A DNA stretch of 53,189 bases from a virus (lineage: Duplodnaviria > Caudoviricetes): the IMG/VR virus record IMGVR_UViG_3300013099_000025, positions 1-53,189 of that record. One strand, given 5' to 3'. The position numbers and the translations under genes are program-made. This document shows, piece by piece, positions 42,938 to 52,206 of this stretch. Position 1 is the first letter of the stretch. Every line of letters starts with the position of its first letter. The notes beneath the pieces were generated by a model, which saw nothing but the letters and a program-made list of their open reading frames with translations, ran no database searches and was not told the origin of the DNA.

Positions 42938-43789
42938 CTATATTAGTGAATTATAGTTGAATCCATTCTCAACACCTTTGCAATTAATTGCTATTGCTTC
43001 ATGTGTATGAATAGATTCTTCATGTTTACATTTAACAATCCAATCTACAATACCATCCATTTTCTCTAATTGATATGATATCAATCGGATTGCATCTTCA
43101 ACAAATAACGGATTTTCGGATGCAACTCTAGCTAATTCTTGTTCATCGATTCGTTTTATAATCGGATAGGGTTGTGTAACTAATATTTTATTCATACCTT
43201 CGATAATATCTTCCAACCATATCTGTTTTTTATTTATCAAATCCATCGATATTCTTATTTTTGTAAATGATCTTTGTGCATGTGGGAATCCCATATTCTT
43301 TAATTTAGTCATCAAATGTTTGGCTAATTCAGCTGAACATGGACAATATGATGAATATTGGATTTCTACTGATTGAATAAATTCATATTTCCCATCTACC
43401 CTAGACGCTTCAAATGAACAAGGATAGAATAACGGAAATTCGTTATCGCTGATTGGAGATTTTTTAGAGACAGGTAAATCAAAATAAAATTTGATATAAC
43501 TATCTCTTTCCCCTACAGCACTACTGATTTCATCCAAACATAATTTAATCAATGACCAATTAAGACCTTTATTGAGATAAGGTTTTATTGACAATAACAA
43601 ACGTGACATTGAAATACCTTTTATATTGTCACGTAGATTGGTAGCTATAAATACATTGGCTACCAATTGTGATGTTTCACCATTTCGCAATAATAATGAA
43701 AAAGGCAGTTTTATAGTTTCCACGCCTACTATATTAATTGCGATTCTATATTCCGGTGATGTTTCTTGTATATCTGGTAATAATGTCAT
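42938..43789 (-). CDS. folE2: GTP cyclohydrolase I type B (FolE2)
   Basis: LPDIQ, KGISMSR, SYCPCS, PHAQRS, KRIDE, NPLFVED, HEESIHTH motifs. Confidence 0.92.
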   Translation of the reverse strand: MTLLPDIQETSPEYRIAINIVGVETIKLPFSLLLRNGETSQLVANVFIATNLRDNIKGISMSRLLLSIKPYLNKGLNWSLIKLCLDEISSAVGERDSYIKFYFDLPVSKKSPISDNEFPLFYPCSFEASRVDGKYEFIQSVEIQYSSYCPCSAELAKHLMTKLKNMGFPHAQRSFTKIRISMDLINKKQIWLEDIIEGMNKILVTQPYPIIKRIDEQELARVASENPLFVEDAIRLISYQLEKMDGIVDWIVKCKHEESIHTHEAIAINCKGVENGFNYNSLI

Positions 43790-46700
43790 TTCAAATCATC
43801 TCCAATATCAATCATCATGACATAATTATATGCCTTTAATAATTTCAATGTTTCTGATTCCATATCTGGATTTTCTTCTAAATCAAGATATTCTGTTCCA
43901 ATAGCTTTCTTTAGAAAATTATTTTTACCATCAACACAATCAGATTTTATCGTATAAAATTCTTGTTGATTAATTGGCATATCGTTTGAAACTAAACAAA
44001 TACTTTCCATTTCTCCACACTTCTGTCCACCGTTATTAACCTTACCAGAAACAGGTTGCATGGTTTTTTGTGAAGTTATTCCAATACTTCGATAAGCTAA
44101 TTTCTTTTCAGATCTATGAATCAATTTCATGATATACATATATCCAGTCGCAATCTCATTTATAATATAATCATTTAAAATGGGATCGAAAATTTTATCT
44201 TCGAAATCAGTTTTTGTGTATTTCATTATCTTATGTAAATCTTGATTATTTATAGAATCAAATGGTGGTTGAACAAGATATATGTTATCAATATATTGTT
44301 CATCGATAATATCAGGGAGTAATTGTTTTACATGACTAATGATCCATTTTTCTGGTGTCTTATCAGTCAGATAAATATAATCTATGAAATATTTTTTAAT
44401 ATCATGTTGATCTTTACCATCAACAAGCATTTTCTTCATATTGTTCTTCATATCGATCAAAGATTTAGTCAATGATATTTCAAACAATTGTCCAGTATTC
44501 ATTCGAGAAATAACACCAACTGGATTCAAACAAACATCTACATGTGATCCATCTGGTAATTGTGGCATGACTTCATGTTTTTTAATTGCGGTAATAACAC
44601 CTTTATTTCCATGTCTATTTGCCAGTTTATCTCCAATCTGAATCGGACTTTCATATATCCCATTTATATCTATTCTCACACCTTTGATCAATTCATCTTT
44701 ATTCTTATATTTACCGGGATAACTATGTATATCAAGACTATGTTCAGCTATAATTCTCTTACCATCTTTTTTATCTGTCGTATCTGCAATAACTTGAATC
44801 AATTTGTTATCTTTTTTGATCTGATCATCAATAACTTTATTCATCCATGTGTCATATTCTTTAATATTGGTATACCATTCATTTGCATATACTGTGATAT
44901 CTTCAATCATCAAATCATATTTTGCTGTTCTTTCAAGACTATCTTCAAAAATATTGTAAGCATTATCCTTTATTGCACCAAATAAATACATTTCTTTGAT
45001 GATTGCGTAAATGTCTCCTTTCTTAATAGATGTTCCAATTGGATGAAGAGGTGTATATACATCTGTTTTTCCACCATTCAGATCCAATAAAACTTTTGTC
45101 GGACTAATATTGAATGACATATCCACATAATGTTGTGATGTCAAACAACCATCCTTCACCAATCTATCAGATATTACAATACCATCCTCATGATTATATC
45201 CATAGTATGACATGAAAGCAATTTTGAAATTTTGACCAATTGTTATATTTTCATTCTTACAAAATACACTATATGCCAACACTTGATCTTTTGAAAATTT
45301 ATCTCCTTTCTTTAAATTAGTTATCATCACATCCATATTTTCAGATGTAATTGGTCTGACCCCAATATCGATTACATCAATATTACCTCGATCATATCCA
45401 ATTATAAGATGTTTATTTGCCACAAATAATACTTCACCATCGCCTTTTGCTTTGTGTAAGAAATTACTATATTTAGTAAAACTTCTTTCCGCACCAGAAC
45501 AAATTAACGGTATATGAAAATCCTTTAAAAGAATTGATTGTTTCATCTGACTAGAAGCCATTTGAAGGCGTGTCTGGTCAGTATGTTCAAGAAATGGAAT
45601 CATCGTTATTGGAATCGATGTTATTGACTTTGATTCTGCTGTATCAATGAACTGAAATTTATCATCAAATTTAGCCATTGGATTTATATTTTGAACCACA
45701 CCACAATTTTCTCTATCTGGTGTATCAACGGGACAAATCTTTCCTGTCATTGATCTATTTAAATCTCTCAATTTAGTCGGAACAGATTTCTTTTTAAATC
45801 CATTAGGACCAGTTAAAGATGTTTGAGCAATCTGAGCAATCTGTTCAATTGGATTAATACTAAAATCAAATTGAACAATCTCAGATGTATTGCTATCTCC
45901 AAGTATTTTAGTTTTAGAAATATTAAATTTTGGTTTAGGATCGTTTCTACAATTAACACATAACTTGAAAACGTTTGTTATGAAATACTGTAAAACCGCA
46001 TATTCGAAACATCTGATTCTTTTATTTGCATAATTAAGATCATCATACCAAATATCATTCACTACAATATTCAACAAACAATCAACTATATTATCTTCAT
46101 CAATAAATCGTTTGGTGATAACATCGACATCTAAAACATGCTTCATGGAAAACATGTAATCATTGCCTTTAGCTACTGGATTACGATCAGAAAAATATGA
46201 ACCAATGTTATGAATGAAATCATCTTGTTCTATTTTTTCATCAGAATAATTCAACAAATCCAATAATAATAATTGGTGTAATGATAAATTTTTTGGATCT
46301 GATTCAATCAATTCCCTTTCATTGATATCTGTTAAAAATTTATCTTTAATTTCATCGGGACCGTAAAATGCATTCAACACAATCGCAAAAGGAATATTTC
46401 GTGAAAAAGCAGATATCATTACGAACGAATCAATTTTATTCTTCTTCGTATATTTCCAAAATAAAGATACTCTACCAACATTTGTTTGAATTCGTATCTC
46501 TTTTTTCTTCTTTGTATCAAAAGTTAAAATGGGAATATCAAATAATTGATATTTCGGAATCTTCTTTCTTTTATTTATGGAAAACCATTGTCCATTTATC
46601 AATTTTGGAATCTGCATTGATAGATCAATAATTTTACCCCCTTTTGATAATTTGATTACGATATTTTCTTTCACCGTATTTATCAAATTATGACCACTAT

Positions 46701-46860
46701 ATCTTGTATCTATTTTTTCAAATCTATCAATTACAAAATCACATAAAACAGGGACTTTTAATATTTCCTCAATATCATCCATTAATTGATCGTAATTTTC
46801 TTGTCGTATAGTAAATATATTTCTTTCCGGTAAATGTAATTCTGGATTATCTGGATACAT
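43786..46860 (-). CDS. rpoB: phage multisubunit RNA polymerase beta subunit
   Basis: GKICPVDTPDRENCG, RLQMASSQMKQ, GYNHEDG, GDKLANRHGNKGVI, NPVGVISRMN.GQ, GGQKCGEME. Confidence 0.95.
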   Translation of the reverse strand: MYPDNPELHLPERNIFTIRQENYDQLMDDIEEILKVPVLCDFVIDRFEKIDTRYSGHNLINTVKENIVIKLSKGGKIIDLSMQIPKLINGQWFSINKRKKIPKYQLFDIPILTFDTKKKKEIRIQTNVGRVSLFWKYTKKNKIDSFVMISAFSRNIPFAIVLNAFYGPDEIKDKFLTDINERELIESDPKNLSLHQLLLLDLLNYSDEKIEQDDFIHNIGSYFSDRNPVAKGNDYMFSMKHVLDVDVITKRFIDEDNIVDCLLNIVVNDIWYDDLNYANKRIRCFEYAVLQYFITNVFKLCVNCRNDPKPKFNISKTKILGDSNTSEIVQFDFSINPIEQIAQIAQTSLTGPNGFKKKSVPTKLRDLNRSMTGKICPVDTPDRENCGVVQNINPMAKFDDKFQFIDTAESKSITSIPITMIPFLEHTDQTRLQMASSQMKQSILLKDFHIPLICSGAERSFTKYSNFLHKAKGDGEVLFVANKHLIIGYDRGNIDVIDIGVRPITSENMDVMITNLKKGDKFSKDQVLAYSVFCKNENITIGQNFKIAFMSYYGYNHEDGIVISDRLVKDGCLTSQHYVDMSFNISPTKVLLDLNGGKTDVYTPLHPIGTSIKKGDIYAIIKEMYLFGAIKDNAYNIFEDSLERTAKYDLMIEDITVYANEWYTNIKEYDTWMNKVIDDQIKKDNKLIQVIADTTDKKDGKRIIAEHSLDIHSYPGKYKNKDELIKGVRIDINGIYESPIQIGDKLANRHGNKGVITAIKKHEVMPQLPDGSHVDVCLNPVGVISRMNTGQLFEISLTKSLIDMKNNMKKMLVDGKDQHDIKKYFIDYIYLTDKTPEKWIISHVKQLLPDIIDEQYIDNIYLVQPPFDSINNQDLHKIMKYTKTDFEDKIFDPILNDYIINEIATGYMYIMKLIHRSEKKLAYRSIGITSQKTMQPVSGKVNNGGQKCGEMESICLVSNDMPINQQEFYTIKSDCVDGKNNFLKKAIGTEYLDLEENPDMESETLKLLKAYNYVMMIDIGDDLK

Positions 46861-46881
46861 ACACTCATTCCTTTCTAATTA

Positions 46882-48567
46882 TTAAATATTTTTGTATGAT
46901 ACACCACACATAATTTTATCAATGACCCCACCAGAATATAGACCAGGCCTCAATAATCCATTTATCAATTCACGCTTTGTATTTGAGAATGAAATTCCCA
47001 TTATCCAACTTTCTAATGATGGAATATTTACAATAGATTTCATCTGATATGGCTTGTTTTCCCTATCTTCTAATGTTCTCCATTTATGTCCATCGTCAAA
47101 CCACATCAATTGTGCAACAAGACATTCGAAATGAACATGCATAAAGAATCTATCTTTTGAATAAATCTCAAATAAATCTGTAACTAATTGATCAGCATTA
47201 CTATTTTTTTCGTATTTATGAACCATTTTAGATATCAATGTCAATGCTCCAACAATATCTTTCTGTTCCATCTCACCGGAATCATTGATGAAATCATCGT
47301 CGATTGAAGCTACTCCTGATTTATGAAATGTCTGTAATACCATTTGGGTATTCGATTCACCTAATGCTTGAGACGCAATCGATCCAACAAATCTACTATT
47401 ATTTAGATGACGATATAATTCTCCATAACATCTCTTACAAACTTTCTCAGATTTACAATACATCACACTTCTGATAAAAATCTTTTTATTGACAAGTGTT
47501 TTTAAATTAGATGGTTTAACCATGAATAATGAATCGTGATCATCTGGTGAAAATGTTATCCATCGACCAATTATAGATTGTGCTTTTTTCTCATCTGGAA
47601 TAAATATAGAAAGATAATCTGTTGTTCCGCAATCATCGTTATCATAATCTAACATCAGATTAGAACAAGCGAATGCGAATTTTCTGAATAAATACCCTGA
47701 GAAAGATGTTTTTATTGCAACATCCAATAATCCTTTTCTACAACCAAATGATGATGTAAAAAATTCTTCTGGTGTCAATCCATCTACAAATGAATTTTTA
47801 ATTGGTGTGGTTAAAATATGTCCTTTAAAATTTGATATGAATCCCCGTGATAGAATCAATTGTCTTGCTTGATCCCAACTTCCTCTTGCACCGGATTCGA
47901 TCATATCTGTATATTGGAAATTTTCACGTAAAAATTTAGAGACTCTTGGACCATTGATTTCTTTGATTTGATCTGTCACTTTATCCAAAGAATAAATCTC
48001 ATCACGCAATTTAGTTTGTGATAACATACCTTTCAATGAAATAGTATGACCAATAACAGTTGCATATACAAAACCAACAGTTTTTATATTGTCTAAAATA
48101 TCTCTGATTTTTCCATTATATTTATTGAAAGCGTCGTAAATATATTGTCGGATAACATCAGATGTCACTGGTTTATTAATCAATTGAAAATCATCTGGAA
48201 AACATTCATTTATTATTTTCATTCCAGCTGTTATTTCTTCATTCTTATATTTTACTTTTTCGCCAAATTTACCATCTGTTATAGTGCTTAACATAAATAA
48301 TCCCAATACCATTTCCTGACTTGGTGTGGTAGTGATTTTCATATCAGTTGGATTTAACAGACAATTTGTTGATAATGCTTGTGTTTTAGCTTCTTCTTGA
48401 GATTCTGGTGTCACTGGAAGATATACAGCCATCGAATCTTGAACAAACACTCCATCGTGTGTAGCGAAAGTAAAATAATCTTCGATTGTAAAATCATAAG
48501 CCGTTGTTTTTTCTGGATCATGTGTTATTTCTATTTCAGATATCGGAATTAGAATTCTATCATTCAT
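46882..48567 (-). CDS. rpoC: RNA polymerase beta' C-terminal part, fused behind a 44-aa C-intein
   Basis: After residue 44: SMAVYLP, TPSQEMVLGL, SGARG, bridge helix RKGLLDVAIKTSFSGYLFRK, CKRCYG, trigger loop QALGESNTQMVLQTFH; own AAGGGG SD. Confidence 0.93.
   Translation of the reverse strand: MNDRILIPISEIEITHDPEKTTAYDFTIEDYFTFATHDGVFVQDSMAVYLPVTPESQEEAKTQALSTNCLLNPTDMKITTTPSQEMVLGLFMLSTITDGKFGEKVKYKNEEITAGMKIINECFPDDFQLINKPVTSDVIRQYIYDAFNKYNGKIRDILDNIKTVGFVYATVIGHTISLKGMLSQTKLRDEIYSLDKVTDQIKEINGPRVSKFLRENFQYTDMIESGARGSWDQARQLILSRGFISNFKGHILTTPIKNSFVDGLTPEEFFTSSFGCRKGLLDVAIKTSFSGYLFRKFAFACSNLMLDYDNDDCGTTDYLSIFIPDEKKAQSIIGRWITFSPDDHDSLFMVKPSNLKTLVNKKIFIRSVMYCKSEKVCKRCYGELYRHLNNSRFVGSIASQALGESNTQMVLQTFHKSGVASIDDDFINDSGEMEQKDIVGALTLISKMVHKYEKNSNADQLVTDLFEIYSKDRFFMHVHFECLVAQLMWFDDGHKWRTLEDRENKPYQMKSIVNIPSLESWIMGISFSNTKRELINGLLRPGLYSGGVIDKIMCGVSYKNI
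48436..48567 (-). mobile_element. split intein C-half (44 aa; blocks F/G)
   Basis: AYDFTIEDYFTFATHDGVFVQD|S resembles the block F (VYDL.V....F.ANG) and G consensus, with QD in place of HN and Ser+1. Confidence 0.85.
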
Positions 48568-48600
48568 CTATGTGACCCCTTTTTAGGAAATATTTTGTAC

Positions 48601-48642
48601 GTTTCTCTATGATGAAAAACTATGTTTCCATCATAGAGAAAC
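48601..48642. terminator. 14-bp-stem hairpin between the endonuclease gene and the beta'-C gene
   Basis: GTTTCTCTATGATG / CATCATAGAGAAAC. Confidence 0.6.
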
Positions 48643-48648
48643 AAATTT

Positions 48649-49776
48649 TTAAAAATATTTAATTCGTATAAATTTACAGTTTAAAACATTCTCAATTTTT
48701 TTCTGTCGATGATCATCTTTTTCTTTAATTCTTTTATGATGTTTTTCATCAATTTCGATTACGATGTTTCTTTGTGCGTCATAACCATCGACAAGATAAT
48801 TGGTATTTGGAACTTTGAATTCTCCACCATTTTCAGCATGTTGGAAATTATACCCCCATGAATCATTGAATTGTTGAATTAGATTACATGCTTTTTTGTT
48901 ATACATCAATGAATTGCTTTTACTATAATTCGAATTAGCAATATGTTCATTTATGGTTTGTCTCATTTGTTCTTTCTGACACTCTCGTTGTGCTGGATTC
49001 TCCACTCCAAATTGTTCCATATTTGTTTCTTTAATTTTTTCTTTTACTTCTTCTGCTTGAAATGGATTTTCGACACCATAATGTTCTTTTGTTGTTTCTA
49101 TCTTTTTAGCTTTTACTTCTGGTATTTTAGAAACATTATCCACACCATGCTTCATTCTAACACCGGCTTTTTGTGCTTGCTTTCCTTCTTCTGTCTGCCA
49201 CGGAAAATCAGTTCCATACCTTTGTTGTGATGTTTCGATTTTCTTTTGTTGAATCGTGTCCAATTGAGAAATATTATCAACACCATAAATTTCTTTTACT
49301 GTTTCTTGCATCGTATCGATATAGGCAGCTTTTTCAGATCCATAATTTTTGATCGCTGTTGCCTTTTTCTTTTGAATAAATTCTTCTGACGATTGTTTCT
49401 TTGCCAGAATTTTTAGACTACAAGATCGACAACAAGTATCTGAAAAATAAATCAATTTCTCTTTTTTCTTATATGAAAGAATTGCGTATTTCTCTTTACA
49501 TACTTTACATTTTTCAAGAGAATCCAATGTCAGATAATTATTATTCAGTGCCCATAATCTGACATTTACTGTTAATTGCTGTTTCTTGGCATTCGGATAT
49601 GCTTCATCTAAATGACACGTTGCAAGCATAAGTTTTTCTTTTCTATATGCACAACCACCAGCTATGAACCAACGATAATTCTTTTCATTTGCAAATTTTG
49701 GATTCTTGTTCAGTGTTTCGATTTGATTCACACACCATTCACGAGCTTTAACAATTTCTTCTTCTGAATGTAACAT
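48649..49776 (-). mobile_element. free-standing homing endonuclease (Vsr/EDxHD-like PD-(D/E)xK domain with tandem DNA-binding repeats)
   Basis: About 23-aa repeats YGVDNISQ/YGTDFPWQ/HGVDNVSK/YGVENPFQ/FGVENPAQ; C-terminal GGEF..YLVDGYD...VIEIDEKHH...D..RQ..IE...KFIRI; located between the intein halves. Confidence 0.8.
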
Positions 49777-49790
49777 TTTTAAAATATCTC

Positions 49791-51404
49791 CTAATATTTT
49801 TGTTGAACTAAATACCTCCCTTCTGGATTTTCCAACAATTCTTCAGGAGATATTTTTATATTCTTTTGTTCGTTCTCATCCCATACGATTAAACTATGAT
49901 CATCAGATACCCAAAAATCTTCAAATCGATTCTGTGGGTCATGTATGGAAAACATTTTCAAATTACGATGTTCAGAATAATCCAAAATCTTCTTTTCAGC
50001 TATTGTTCCATCGTCTAAACTTATTGCTTTGATGTGCATTTCTTCAGTTGGTTTGTAATGACTTACATTTTCTTTTTCTTTCTCTGGAATGTGTTTAAAC
50101 ATATCAGTATCTTTCAAATCTGCAATATGTTTTACTATACTTTCTTTCTTTTCATTTGTCAAGTGTATAGTACATAATGCTGAGTCCCCGTCAAAATCTG
50201 CGTTAAATCCACGACAAACCATCGGGTGAATACATATAACATCAATTGGCTCAACTTTTATTTTGAATGCGACTAAACTTAATTTATGTAAACTAGGTTG
50301 TCTATTGAGTAAACAGACATCATCACCAATAATCTCTTCACATATTTTCAATAGATGCGGATCATTGTGAAATTGACATTCTTCGACGCATTCCAATGCT
50401 CTATGGATTGATTTGAAATGACCATCATCTATTAATTTTTTAGCAATTTTTATCTTATATAATTCAAGAATCATTCGATATGGTAAAATACATTCATCTA
50501 ATTTAATTGTGGGAGATGGTGCAATCACCGCACGACCTGAAAAATCTATTCGTTTTCCTAAGATATTGCCTCTGATTAATCCTTCTTTCTTCGATATATT
50601 ATCGATAATATAATCAAATAAATCATCGACATTTCTTTGGAATTGACTATAGTATTCTTGATAGATTTTCATATGCCGTGTTATATCAATATCTCCAGCA
50701 GCCATAATTTCTTTTCTGACTAGAATCTGATAATAATATTGATTTAATTGATCGACTGAATTTGTAGTTGGATTTATTTGAGAAATGGGTCGCATTGAAG
50801 GAGGGATAACAATCACTTCGTATAGAAATAAATGTTCATCCACATTCTTCAATAACATCTTAAATTGTTCATTTTCTGGATCAATGATCATATAAGTTTT
50901 GATGGTATTGACGATTAATTTCTCAACAGCTTCATGCATCTGCCAATAATCATACTTCAAATCACTGATTTTTTCATCTTCTTCAAGTGTTTTCAAAATA
51001 AATTCATCATTATATTCGTATAAAATATTTCTATGTGATTTCATTAATTTTGTCACATCATCAAATAATAATTTTTCAGATGAAGGTAATATTTTCTTAA
51101 CAAGGGAAAGATATGTTCTATTAAGCAATGGTATTGGTAAAGTTATTTTAGCAAATTGCCTCCTTCGTTTGAGACTGTTTGTAATTTCTAAATCATCACA
51201 AAATTTTCCACCGCATTTAGCAATTTGACCTTCGGAATGTTTTCCATGATATATTCCACATCGACAAGTATAATTATTTTCTAAACCGAATATATGTTCT
51301 GAAAATAATCCATATCTATGATATTTCTTCTTCTTCTCAAAATAACCAGAGGTAGTTATTTCTGGTAAATCTTTCGCAAATTCTCTATTTAATAATTTAG
51401 GCAT
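49791..51404 (-). CDS. rpoC: RNA polymerase beta' N-terminal part (ends at catalytic NADFDGD) fused to a 130-aa N-intein
   Basis: GLFSEHIFG, CRCG zinc finger, PPSMRP, GNILGKRIDFSGRAVI, LNRQPSLH, NADFDGD at 50184-50204. Confidence 0.95.
   Translation of the reverse strand: MPKLLNREFAKDLPEITTSGYFEKKKKYHRYGLFSEHIFGLENNYTCRCGIYHGKHSEGQIAKCGGKFCDDLEITNSLKRRRQFAKITLPIPLLNRTYLSLVKKILPSSEKLLFDDVTKLMKSHRNILYEYNDEFILKTLEEDEKISDLKYDYWQMHEAVEKLIVNTIKTYMIIDPENEQFKMLLKNVDEHLFLYEVIVIPPSMRPISQINPTTNSVDQLNQYYYQILVRKEIMAAGDIDITRHMKIYQEYYSQFQRNVDDLFDYIIDNISKKEGLIRGNILGKRIDFSGRAVIAPSPTIKLDECILPYRMILELYKIKIAKKLIDDGHFKSIHRALECVEECQFHNDPHLLKICEEIIGDDVCLLNRQPSLHKLSLVAFKIKVEPIDVICIHPMVCRGFNADFDGDSALCTIHLTNEKKESIVKHIADLKDTDMFKHIPEKEKENVSHYKPTEEMHIKAISLDDGTIAEKKILDYSEHRNLKMFSIHDPQNRFEDFWVSDDHSLIVWDENEQKNIKISPEELLENPEGRYLVQQKY
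49794..50183 (-). mobile_element. split intein N-half (130 aa; Ser1, block B SDDH)
   Basis: RNAP similarity stops after DFDGD; SALCTIHL...HIADL...AISLDDG....KKI...H...FWVSDDHSLIV is a HINT-domain N-region with a TxxH-like block B. Confidence 0.85.
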
Positions 51405-51480
51405 TTATTATGATACTCCACTATATAAATATTTAAGAAAAAAATTATACATTTCAGCTATATAACTATGTTGTGATTAA

Positions 51481-51522
51481 TTTTAAAAACAGCCCATGAT
51501 TTAACATGGACTGTTTTTAAAA
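51481..51522 (-). terminator. hairpin upstream of the beta' gene
   Basis: TTTTAAAAACAG...CTGTTTTTAAAA with an inner CATG/CATG pair. Confidence 0.6.
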
Positions 51523-51525
51523 TTT

Positions 51526-52206
51526 TTATACCATTCTTAGCTGTTTAGCAACATTCATCATACCATAAATAAAATCCCGTTCAGGGACATTCATAATAGA
51601 TGATAATGGTTTTTTGAAATTATTTAACATATACCCCATGTTAAATCTTTTCTTTACTTTTTTACGAGGAATCATAATATCATTTTTTTGATCATATAAC
51701 ATATCAACATCACCAAAATCAACAGAAACTTTCGATAAATCAAACCAATATCCCTCATCGAAATCCCAATATGATAAATCATTGATTAATTTATTCAATG
51801 ATATATTGATTGGATCTTGTGCATATGATTTATACGGATTCTTGCAGAATTCATATAATTCAAATTGTTTTCCTTTGTATGTATATTCTAATTCATTCGT
51901 GATCATTGTAAGTGTTTCTGTAGAGAAATGATCAAATTTATTTATAAGTTTTGCATTTGGATGGTGTGCATCTACCAAATAAATATTTGTGATTTCTGCA
52001 CGTTTTTCTTTTGTATTGCGTGGTATGTATTTAATTAATAGTTTATGAACAATACAGAATTCGTCATAAATTTTATCGATATTCACATCGAATCCGAAAC
52101 ATTTTAAATATCTTGGATTGATCACACAATCTACTAAAAGCATTGGTTTTTCAGAATATACCATTCTATGGTTCAAAATTGTAGGAATTGGAATGCTGTC
52201 TAACAT
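51526..52206 (-). CDS. hypothetical protein (HPN motif; possible E2-like fold)
   Basis: TGATG coupling to the ThiF-like gene; DAHHPNA...EFC. Confidence 0.6.
   Translation of the reverse strand: MLDSIPIPTILNHRMVYSEKPMLLVDCVINPRYLKCFGFDVNIDKIYDEFCIVHKLLIKYIPRNTKEKRAEITNIYLVDAHHPNAKLINKFDHFSTETLTMITNELEYTYKGKQFELYEFCKNPYKSYAQDPINISLNKLINDLSYWDFDEGYWFDLSKVSVDFGDVDMLYDQKNDIMIPRKKVKKRFNMGYMLNNFKKPLSSIMNVPERDFIYGMMNVAKQLRMV

Follow-up and report, generated by a model that had tools for sequence, protein, structure and literature searches.

An aspartate-ended, putatively trans-splicing split intein at the NADFDGD motif of a phage RNA polymerase beta' subunit

Several groups of described inteins resemble the element analyzed here; statements about the papers cited below refer to the portions of their text that were available. 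Fractured genes, in which a split intein is accompanied by a free-standing Vsr-like homing endonuclease encoded between its halves, have been reported by Dassa et al. (2009, PMC2677866). The class 1 mechanism also operates in inteins whose last residue is Asp, Gln, or Glu, with cyclization of that residue (Mills, Johnson, and Perler 2014, PMC4031507). Naturally split inteins with Ser at both positions 1 and +1 are very rare and are sought for splicing under oxidizing conditions (PMC10189870, PMC12707363). Reported inteins of RNA polymerases reside in archaeal rPol A' and A'' and in eukaryotic or viral RPB2, RPA2, and RPC2 (PMC1635734). Here, we analyze a candidate split intein in the RNA polymerase beta' gene of the viral record IMGVR_UViG_3300013099_000025, a stretch of 53,189 bases that is called the window below and to which, at its full length, all coordinates refer. 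The N-terminal half of the intein (IntN) and its C-terminal half (IntC) are encoded in different open reading frames (ORFs); the insertion lies directly behind the catalytic NADFDGD motif of beta'.

We consider it probable that the two halves constitute an active class 1 split intein that splices in trans independently of cysteine and relies on an invariant terminal Asp for its third step, an assessment that draws on residue conservation among homologs and on structure models. Splicing itself and Asp cyclization as its third step are what we infer, the latter from the reported behavior of other Asp- and Gln-ended inteins. The interrupted beta' gene is best explained as a "fractured" gene, in which an endonuclease gene split the intein at the usual endonuclease-insertion site. 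An earlier note on this DNA had left the choice between a natural Asp-cyclizing split intein and a splicing-dead pair of halves; the conservation reported below favors the former, and a mere zipper does not predict that pattern.

Layout and exact boundaries of the split intein

The locus consists of four consecutive ORFs on the minus strand, encoding 537, 375, 561, and 1024 amino acids (aa). Features of the first three are as follows (E, expect value; beta'N and beta'C, N- and C-terminal parts of beta').

51404..49791, minus strand: ORF 1, beta'N plus IntN, 537 aa (Pfam Rpb1 domains 1-2)
50184..51404, minus strand: N-extein, N-terminal part of beta', 407 aa (Pfam RNA_pol_Rpb1_2, E 8.8e-27)
49794..50183, minus strand: IntN, 130 aa, SALC...QQKY (stop codon 49793-49791)
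48649..49776, minus strand: free-standing homing endonuclease gene between the intein halves, 375 aa (Pfam DUF7487)
48567..46882, minus strand: ORF 3, IntC plus beta'C, 561 aa (Pfam Rpb1 domains 3-5)
48436..48567, minus strand: IntC, 44 aa, ending VFVQD (block F Asp25, Gln43, terminal Asp44)
46882..48435, minus strand: C-extein, Ser+1 plus the C-terminal part of beta', 517 aa plus stop codon (Pfam RNA_pol_Rpb1_5, E 4.8e-25)

Position 1 of the intein is Ser (codon TCA, 50183-50181). It directly follows NADFDGD, which occupies residues 401-407 of the 537-aa ORF and closes the N-extein, and the -1 residue is the third Asp of this catalytic, Mg-binding motif, just as the earlier note had described. 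Block B of IntN reads S93-D-D-H96 within FWVSDDHSL, and the acidic residue of block F is Asp25 of IntC. The last two residues of IntC are Gln43 (CAA) and Asp44 (GAT, 48438-48436), followed by Ser at +1 (TCG, 48435-48433) and then MAVYLP. IntC contains no Cys, and IntN has a single, non-conserved one at position 4. The residues and coordinates originally assigned to the element (SALC start, SDDH, VQD end, and Ser+1) were all right.

Comparison with the intein-free homolog P0022 fixes these boundaries. The N-extein (407 aa) matches residues 1-407 of P0022 at 80% identity and the C-extein (517 aa) residues 408-924 at 82% identity, both alignments being gap-free and Ser+1 standing opposite Ala408; Ala is also present at this position in P0028. 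The insertion therefore comprises exactly 130 + 44 residues and immediately follows the third Asp of NADFDGD. Removal of these 174 intein residues leaves a beta' of 924 aa, the length of P0022 (407 + 517). The possibility that Cys4 of SALC is the true first residue was rejected, because three extra residues would then remain in the catalytic loop, while the Ser1 boundary is gap-free against P0022; moreover, position 4 is not conserved among the N halves.

With respect to the features that define class 1 inteins, the window has an in-frame insertion that is missing from homologs, exteins that are exactly colinear after its removal, Ser1, a block B of the form (T/S)-x-x-H, Asp at block F position 4, and Ser+1. 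The C-terminal His-Asn of this class is absent, and the intein of the window ends in Gln-Asp. Since class 1 accepts Asp, Gln, and Glu ends (PMC4031507), this ending marks a variant and not an exclusion from the class. A class 3 intein, which would lack a nucleophile at its N terminus and carry Cys at block F position 4 together with a WCT motif, was rejected in view of the presence of Ser1, the lack of Cys in IntC, and Asp at block F position 4 in 73 of 73 family members.

The layout resembles that of the fractured genes of Dassa et al. (PMC2677866), in which an ORF for the N-terminal host part and IntN, an endonuclease ORF, and an ORF for IntC and the C-terminal host part follow one another on one strand. 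Those systems were found mainly in phage and metagenome DNA and are split at the usual endonuclease-insertion site, as is the window. They differ, however, in host protein and insertion site, RNA polymerase not being mentioned in the available text, and they end in Asn, whereas the window's intein ends in Gln-Asp. Their endonuclease is Vsr-like, whereas that of the window is defined by DUF7487 and has a weakly matched Vsr-like tail.

Like the non-Asn class 1 inteins of PMC4031507, the window has nucleophiles at positions 1 and +1, the block B His, the block F Asp, and a cyclizable end residue. The non-Asn ends described in the available text of that paper are variants that arose after the loss of a catalytically important residue. 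In the present family, by contrast, Asp is invariant over more than 100 clusters with no Asn member found, and the window's intein is split and uses Ser at both junctions.

Further likeness is found among the cysteine-less split inteins Aes123 PolB1/CL, PolB16 OarG, and LCGC14 (PMC10189870, PMC12707363, PMC11923092), which share Ser1, the oxyester chemistry of Ser or Thr at +1, and a phage origin. Their halves (about 115-120 aa for IntN and 39-46 aa for IntC) are similar in size to those of the window (130 + 44), and the present family has a near-invariant His about 24 residues before the block B His, which resembles their NX motif. On the other hand, they are inserted in PolB and, where the ending is given, finish in Asn (N183 in PolB16 and N159 in Aes123), whereas the window has beta' and Asp. 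In addition, His72 of the window is preceded by Glu, and its IntN has the non-conserved Cys4.

The inteins of PMC1635734 likewise sit in conserved regions of multisubunit RNA polymerase subunits, but they have archaeal, eukaryotic, or viral hosts, are contiguous, and end in Asn, whereas the element in the window is from a phage, split, and Asp-ended. No description of an intein allele at the NADFDGD site was found in the literature searched, outside of which lay supplements and subscription journals; neither this insertion site nor an obligatory Asp had been reported there.

Conservation of the terminal Asp and of the catalytic residues

A word-based search detected 20 further beta'N-IntN proteins (38-78% identity over the query region) and five further IntC-beta'C proteins. 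When an IntN profile (21 sequences) was compared with 1.84 billion representative proteins, 106 matches were obtained at E <= 0.001, 89 of them at E <= 1e-10, which puts the feature far beyond chance. A total of 133 collected proteins were aligned to hidden Markov models (HMMs) of both halves; 73 of them had an IntC match, and 72 junctions could be aligned (P0062 is truncated). All 72 protein junctions have Asp as the final residue of the intein. Junctions were also counted at the DNA level in 60 fetched loci and the window, using an HMM without an imposed residue, and here Asp was present in 49 of 49 distinct segments, the protein and DNA sets partly overlapping. A separate scan, whose pattern required Asp, counted 38 GAT and seven GAC terminal codons.

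Asn at the terminal codon of homologs, which the earlier note had named as evidence against its proposal, is one transition away from the Asp codons and occurs in none of the 72 protein and none of the 49 DNA junctions. With Asp at all homologous junctions, sequencing error is excluded as far as homologs allow, and, judged by these sequences, the terminal Asp is not a sequencing error. As for a conserved QD end, which the earlier note had advised looking for in homologs, Asp is universal, and Gln precedes it in 41 of the 72 junctions; the other penultimate residues are Y (17), W (3), F (3), M (3), V (3), K (1), and N (1). Asp-terminal inteins had also been described as rare: the ending is real, but within the NADFDGD-site family it is an invariant rule and not a quirk of one copy. 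An invariant Asp in more than 100 clusters, with Asn in none of them, would show Asp cyclization to be a stable and selected solution.

A second intein occurs in the related phage beta' proteins P0134-P0146 (1046-1420 aa), which are the nearest longer relatives (55-63% identity to window residues 250-407) and carry no intein at the NADFDGD site. This second intein is recognized by Pfam Intein_splicing (PF14890), ends in His-Asn, and lies near RTFH...SG in the C-terminal part, whereas that of the window lies at NADFDGD. Because a His-Asn intein is found in the same host family, the Asp ending is, on this sequence comparison, a property of the NADFDGD-site allele and not of the host protein.

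Residue 1 could be scored in 56 of 125 IntN-bearing proteins, namely those with DFDGD just upstream; the rest begin within the intein or show a variant of the motif. Of the 56, 40 have S, eight C, seven T, and one A at position 1, and the 21 N halves collected first have S 15 times, C four times, and T twice. Where the intein is present, 57 of 72 proteins carry T at +1, 14 carry S, and one carries C. At both junctions, then, Ser, Thr, and Cys replace one another, and other residues almost never appear. The block B His is kept in 117 of 120 proteins, the block F Asp (Asp25 of IntC) in 73 of 73, and His72 in 120 of 123. At block B position 7, 107 of 120 proteins have S and 10 have T. The earlier note had regarded SDDH in place of TxxH as atypical; its residues were correct, but Ser is the norm in the family, and S-x-x-H is, within this alignment, an ordinary conservative variant.

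NADFDGD is followed by Q in 115, A in two, T in one, and V in one of 119 longer beta' proteins that have nothing inserted there. Adding P0022 and P0028 (both Ala), 120 of 121 intein-free beta' proteins have no nucleophile at the +1 site. In this sequence set, a hydroxyl or thiol side chain at +1 is thus tied to the presence of the intein. Selection for splicing predicts conserved nucleophiles at both junctions, and a role restricted to docking does not. P0134 has Thr after NADFDGD with no intein there, which may be a trace of a lost intein.

The intein is also well conserved relative to its surroundings. Identity in IntN is equal to or higher than that in the extein in 19 of 20 N halves (P0002-P0021); for example, P0005 has 45% identity in the extein and 72% in IntN. 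IntC is more conserved than its extein in five of five comparisons (P0024-P0029 set versus the window). This conservation pattern suggests a constrained, mobile element that may have spread horizontally by homing between diverged phage polymerase genes. From the sequences collected, the intein family looks phage-borne. Two family loci (L061 and L062, on short contigs of 3.8 and 21 kb) were found among 185,579 species genomes; they belong to metagenome-assembled genomes labeled Thermoplasmata archaeon and Candidatus Izimaplasma and may be binned phage DNA.

Proposed splicing route and competing explanations

A HINT fold is predicted for a contiguous relative rather than for the window's own halves. 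The model of the contiguous mini-intein that forms part of P0078, based on an alignment of 13 relatives, has a mean predicted local distance difference test score (pLDDT) of 92.4 and a predicted template modeling score (pTM) of 0.86. Against the PDB, Foldseek gave this model 51 matching chains at E <= 0.001. The fused cysteine-less Aes123 PolB1 split intein 9hth ranks first (E 5.8e-10; template modeling score, TM, 0.73-0.77), and among the matches listed the remainder are inteins or intein-like domains.

For the halves of the window itself, a model of the IntN-IntC complex obtained a score of 0.79, and the best of three controls obtained 0.01. The mark applied to such models is reached by 58 of 80 solved complexes and by two of 110 mismatched pairs, figures that are approximate here since our own alignments were supplied. 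Contacts agree by at least 96% between the runs, and the pLDDT of the partner is at least 75. Solved split-intein complexes are present in the PDB, and the pass may partly reflect likeness to them. The model supports the view that IntN and IntC of the window bind each other.

In the same model, IntN residues 70-72 pack against IntC residues 22-25, and His72, which lies 24 residues before the block B His, touches residues 22-24 beside the block F Asp25. The NX motif includes a His that is conserved only in Ser1 inteins, lies upstream of block B, and is near the block F/C2 Asp; this His was required for splicing in three tested inteins, and Lys or Arg invariably precedes it (PMC10189870). HMMER aligns His72 with Arg-His of the TFIIB intein 5o9j. 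As a lead only, the alignment and the predicted contacts make His72 a candidate NX-motif histidine. Across the family (n = 123), the residue before His72 is I in 37, V in 33, K in 31, E in 14, and R in four proteins, so that Lys or Arg is found in 35 of 123.

We propose the following route. Three proteins, beta'N-IntN, the endonuclease, and IntC-beta'C, would be made from the locus, and IntN (130 aa) and IntC (44 aa) would associate to form one HINT domain. Ser1 would then attack the Asp(-1)-Ser1 bond in an N-O acyl shift, aided by Ser93/His96, Asp25, and probably His72, and Ser+1 would accept the N-extein by transesterification. Asp44 would cyclize, presumably to a succinic anhydride, and the Asp44-Ser+1 bond would be cut. 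Finally, an O-N shift would produce a continuous beta' of 924 aa with the junction NADFDGD-SMAVYLP. Since the intein is attached to the Mg-binding Asp, polymerase activity would have to wait for splicing.

Several observations weigh against this route. Both histidines that usually help in the third step are missing: the penultimate residue is Gln in the window and is never His in the family, and the presumed F:13 residue (assigned by block spacing; window residue 32) is Phe, the family having mostly Tyr or Phe there. Asp is known to cyclize less readily than Asn at neutral pH. The residue preceding His72 in the window is Glu, whereas the NX motif has Lys or Arg. Neither intein half is recognized by Pfam or PHROGs, and at E <= 10 neither IntN nor IntC nor the contiguous relative matched a Pfam intein model such as PF14890 (Intein_splicing). 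At the sequence level, solved inteins give marginal matches (TFIIB mini-intein 5o9j, E 0.015; Pab PolII 2lcj, E 0.025-0.04). Splicing is slow in some Gln-ended inteins (PMC4031507). Finally, P0098 (537 aa) has Ala at position 1 (NADFDGD-AVSG...) and may be inactive or may follow a class 2-like route.

Among the alternatives, the one that survives best, though we regard it as unlikely, is an active intein with a third step other than Asp cyclization, such as direct hydrolysis or the use of another residue. The absence of the usual cyclization helpers would fit this explanation, as would the statement that "other mechanisms are possible" for non-Asn ends (PMC4031507). Nevertheless, Asp is strictly invariant beside a variable neighbor, which points to a direct chemical role of the Asp side chain.

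A splicing-dead zipper, in which the halves would hold the beta' fragments together non-covalently and the 174-aa domain would stay on the working polymerase, appears quite improbable. For such docking, nucleophiles at positions 1 and +1, the block B His, the block F Asp, and a set last residue would all be dispensable, yet these are the most conserved positions, and the +1 nucleophile is seen only where the intein is present. It would also make no sense for the contiguous mini-inteins of the same allele (P0045/L008, P0078, and P0083), and a folded domain on the Mg-binding Asp in the buried active-center loop should block catalysis. These points stand against the facts that split beta' subunits are known in other phage polymerases, that both the His-Asn ending and the penultimate His are absent, and that the halves are predicted to bind each other (score 0.79 versus 0.01 for the best control, with the caveats given above).

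We give just as little weight to cleavage without ligation, whereby the associated halves would cut themselves at one or both junctions and the beta' fragments would assemble non-covalently. Inteins with Ser1 or of the Asp type can tend toward off-pathway cleavage, and marked C-cleavage has been reported for a Ser1 intein (PMC10189870). However, a +1 nucleophile is dispensable for C-terminal cleavage, and yet all 72 of 72 proteins have T, S, or C at +1; if only N-cleavage took place, beta'C would keep its IntC; and a chain break right after the catalytic Asp is unlikely to be tolerated.

An artefact, whether GAT as an error for AAT or a group I intron with an endonuclease ORF in place of an intein, is practically out of the question given Asp in 72/72 and 49/49 junctions, the use of both Asp codons, and the conserved intein halves encoded at both ORF ends. 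A search for group I or group II introns in 46500-51800 (Rfam, E <= 1) found no intron family and returned two chance snoRNA matches only.

If the halves do act as an Asp-cyclizing intein, a family that does without the two usual helper histidines makes catalysis of the third step directly testable. It also offers many diverged split pairs, including atypically split ones with a short IntN. On the annotation side, as Pfam and PHROGs are blind to the halves, fractured phage beta' genes will be annotated as two truncated polymerase genes.

Forms of the allele and surrounding features

A broader proposal, which we advance tentatively and with the balance slightly on the side of doubt, is that the NADFDGD loop hosts an undescribed phage-wide allele with Asp as the obligatory cyclizing residue, mostly Ser/Thr chemistry, and six natural forms. 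These forms are a contiguous mini-intein, a contiguous intein with a large insert, a canonical split with or without an endonuclease, an endonuclease fusion, halves located about 76 kb apart, and an atypical split.

The contiguous mini-intein is represented by P0045 (identical to L008), P0078, and P0083, and the contiguous form with a large insert by, for example, P0030, P0042, and P0069. In P0021 (784 aa), IntN is in frame with a DUF7487/MTES_1575 endonuclease, and this fusion is a possible intermediate between contiguous and fractured inteins; P0035 (843 aa) is also longer than IntN needs. The canonical split with an endonuclease is present in the window and in L002, L003, and L012, and in L004 an 85-aa ORF alone separates the halves. 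On one viral contig of 118,287 bases, beta'N-IntN (L001:5867-7390) and IntC-beta'C (L013:4986-7019) are about 76 kb apart on opposite strands, and no IntC was found within 7 kb downstream of the IntN of L001. The two halves appear to be genomically unlinked, their pairing being assumed.

The atypical split came to light when metagenome contigs were searched with an alignment; of 93 candidates from viral contigs searched with a single sequence, none was confirmed. In this form, the upstream ORF stops 27-39 residues after DFDGD (L015, L016, L017, L018, L023, L024, L025, and L031), and a long IntC of about 150 aa, starting with MKLF, is fused to beta'C (e.g., L015:1382-4822). An endonuclease ORF lies in between in L015-L018, and in L023 the ORFs are about 25 bases apart without an endonuclease. 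The tail has 10 residues in L021 and L022. At L005:1493-1657, IntC ends in ...VQD-T-N-stop, and beta'C continues in a different frame after an apparent loss of about 25-30 codons; the copy is either damaged or wrongly assembled.

Gene breaking as modeled by Dassa et al. (PMC2677866) covers both the loss of the endonuclease, seen here in L004, and unlinked halves, seen here in L001 with L013, and the forms of the allele match the stages of that model as set out in the available text. If the allele is indeed phage-wide, it would present the stages of gene fracture as a natural series and yield split inteins that are independent of cysteine and whose third-step chemistry may respond to pH. It could even serve as a conditional switch on phage transcription.

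The ORF between the intein halves of the window matches DUF7487 in three stretches (E 6.7e-25) and the PHROG "homing endonuclease" (E 9.5e-16). Its tail has a weak match to DUF559 (Vsr-like; E 0.0011, 19.2 bits, under the 20.6-bit cut-off), and relatives of this endonuclease show weak MTES_1575 nuclease matches. DUF7487 is also present in the ORFs between the halves of L002, L003, L012, and the atypically split L015 (four of four examined). By megablast, the locus as a whole had no match among 50,697 phage records; tblastn retrieved distant beta' proteins only, at less than 35% identity, with none reaching meaningfully into the intein.

Two further features adjoin the elements listed above.

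48600..48643, minus strand: 19-bp perfect hairpin, from the endonuclease stop codon to the IntC start codon (RNA fold)
43786..46860, minus strand: RNA polymerase beta subunit gene, 1024 aa, adjacent (Pfam RNA_pol_Rpb2_6, E 3.9e-46)

The hairpin region (48560-48660) has a folding energy of -27.1 kcal/mol (z = -5.5), and none of 200 shuffled sequences was as stable. It was not called a terminator by a simple consensus scan, and it may be an element of transcript processing or control. A sigma-70-like sequence, TTGACA-17-TATAGT (11/12), is located at 50134-50162 on the minus strand, inside the first IntN codons; 15 sigma-70-like matches were counted in the region against 9.1 expected, and this one may be due to chance. 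The 1024-aa beta subunit would be the partner of the spliced beta'. The window, which is about 17% complete according to CheckV and has a guanine-plus-cytosine content of 30%, comes from a contractile-tailed phage, with genes for a tail sheath, baseplate wedge subunit, and large terminase.

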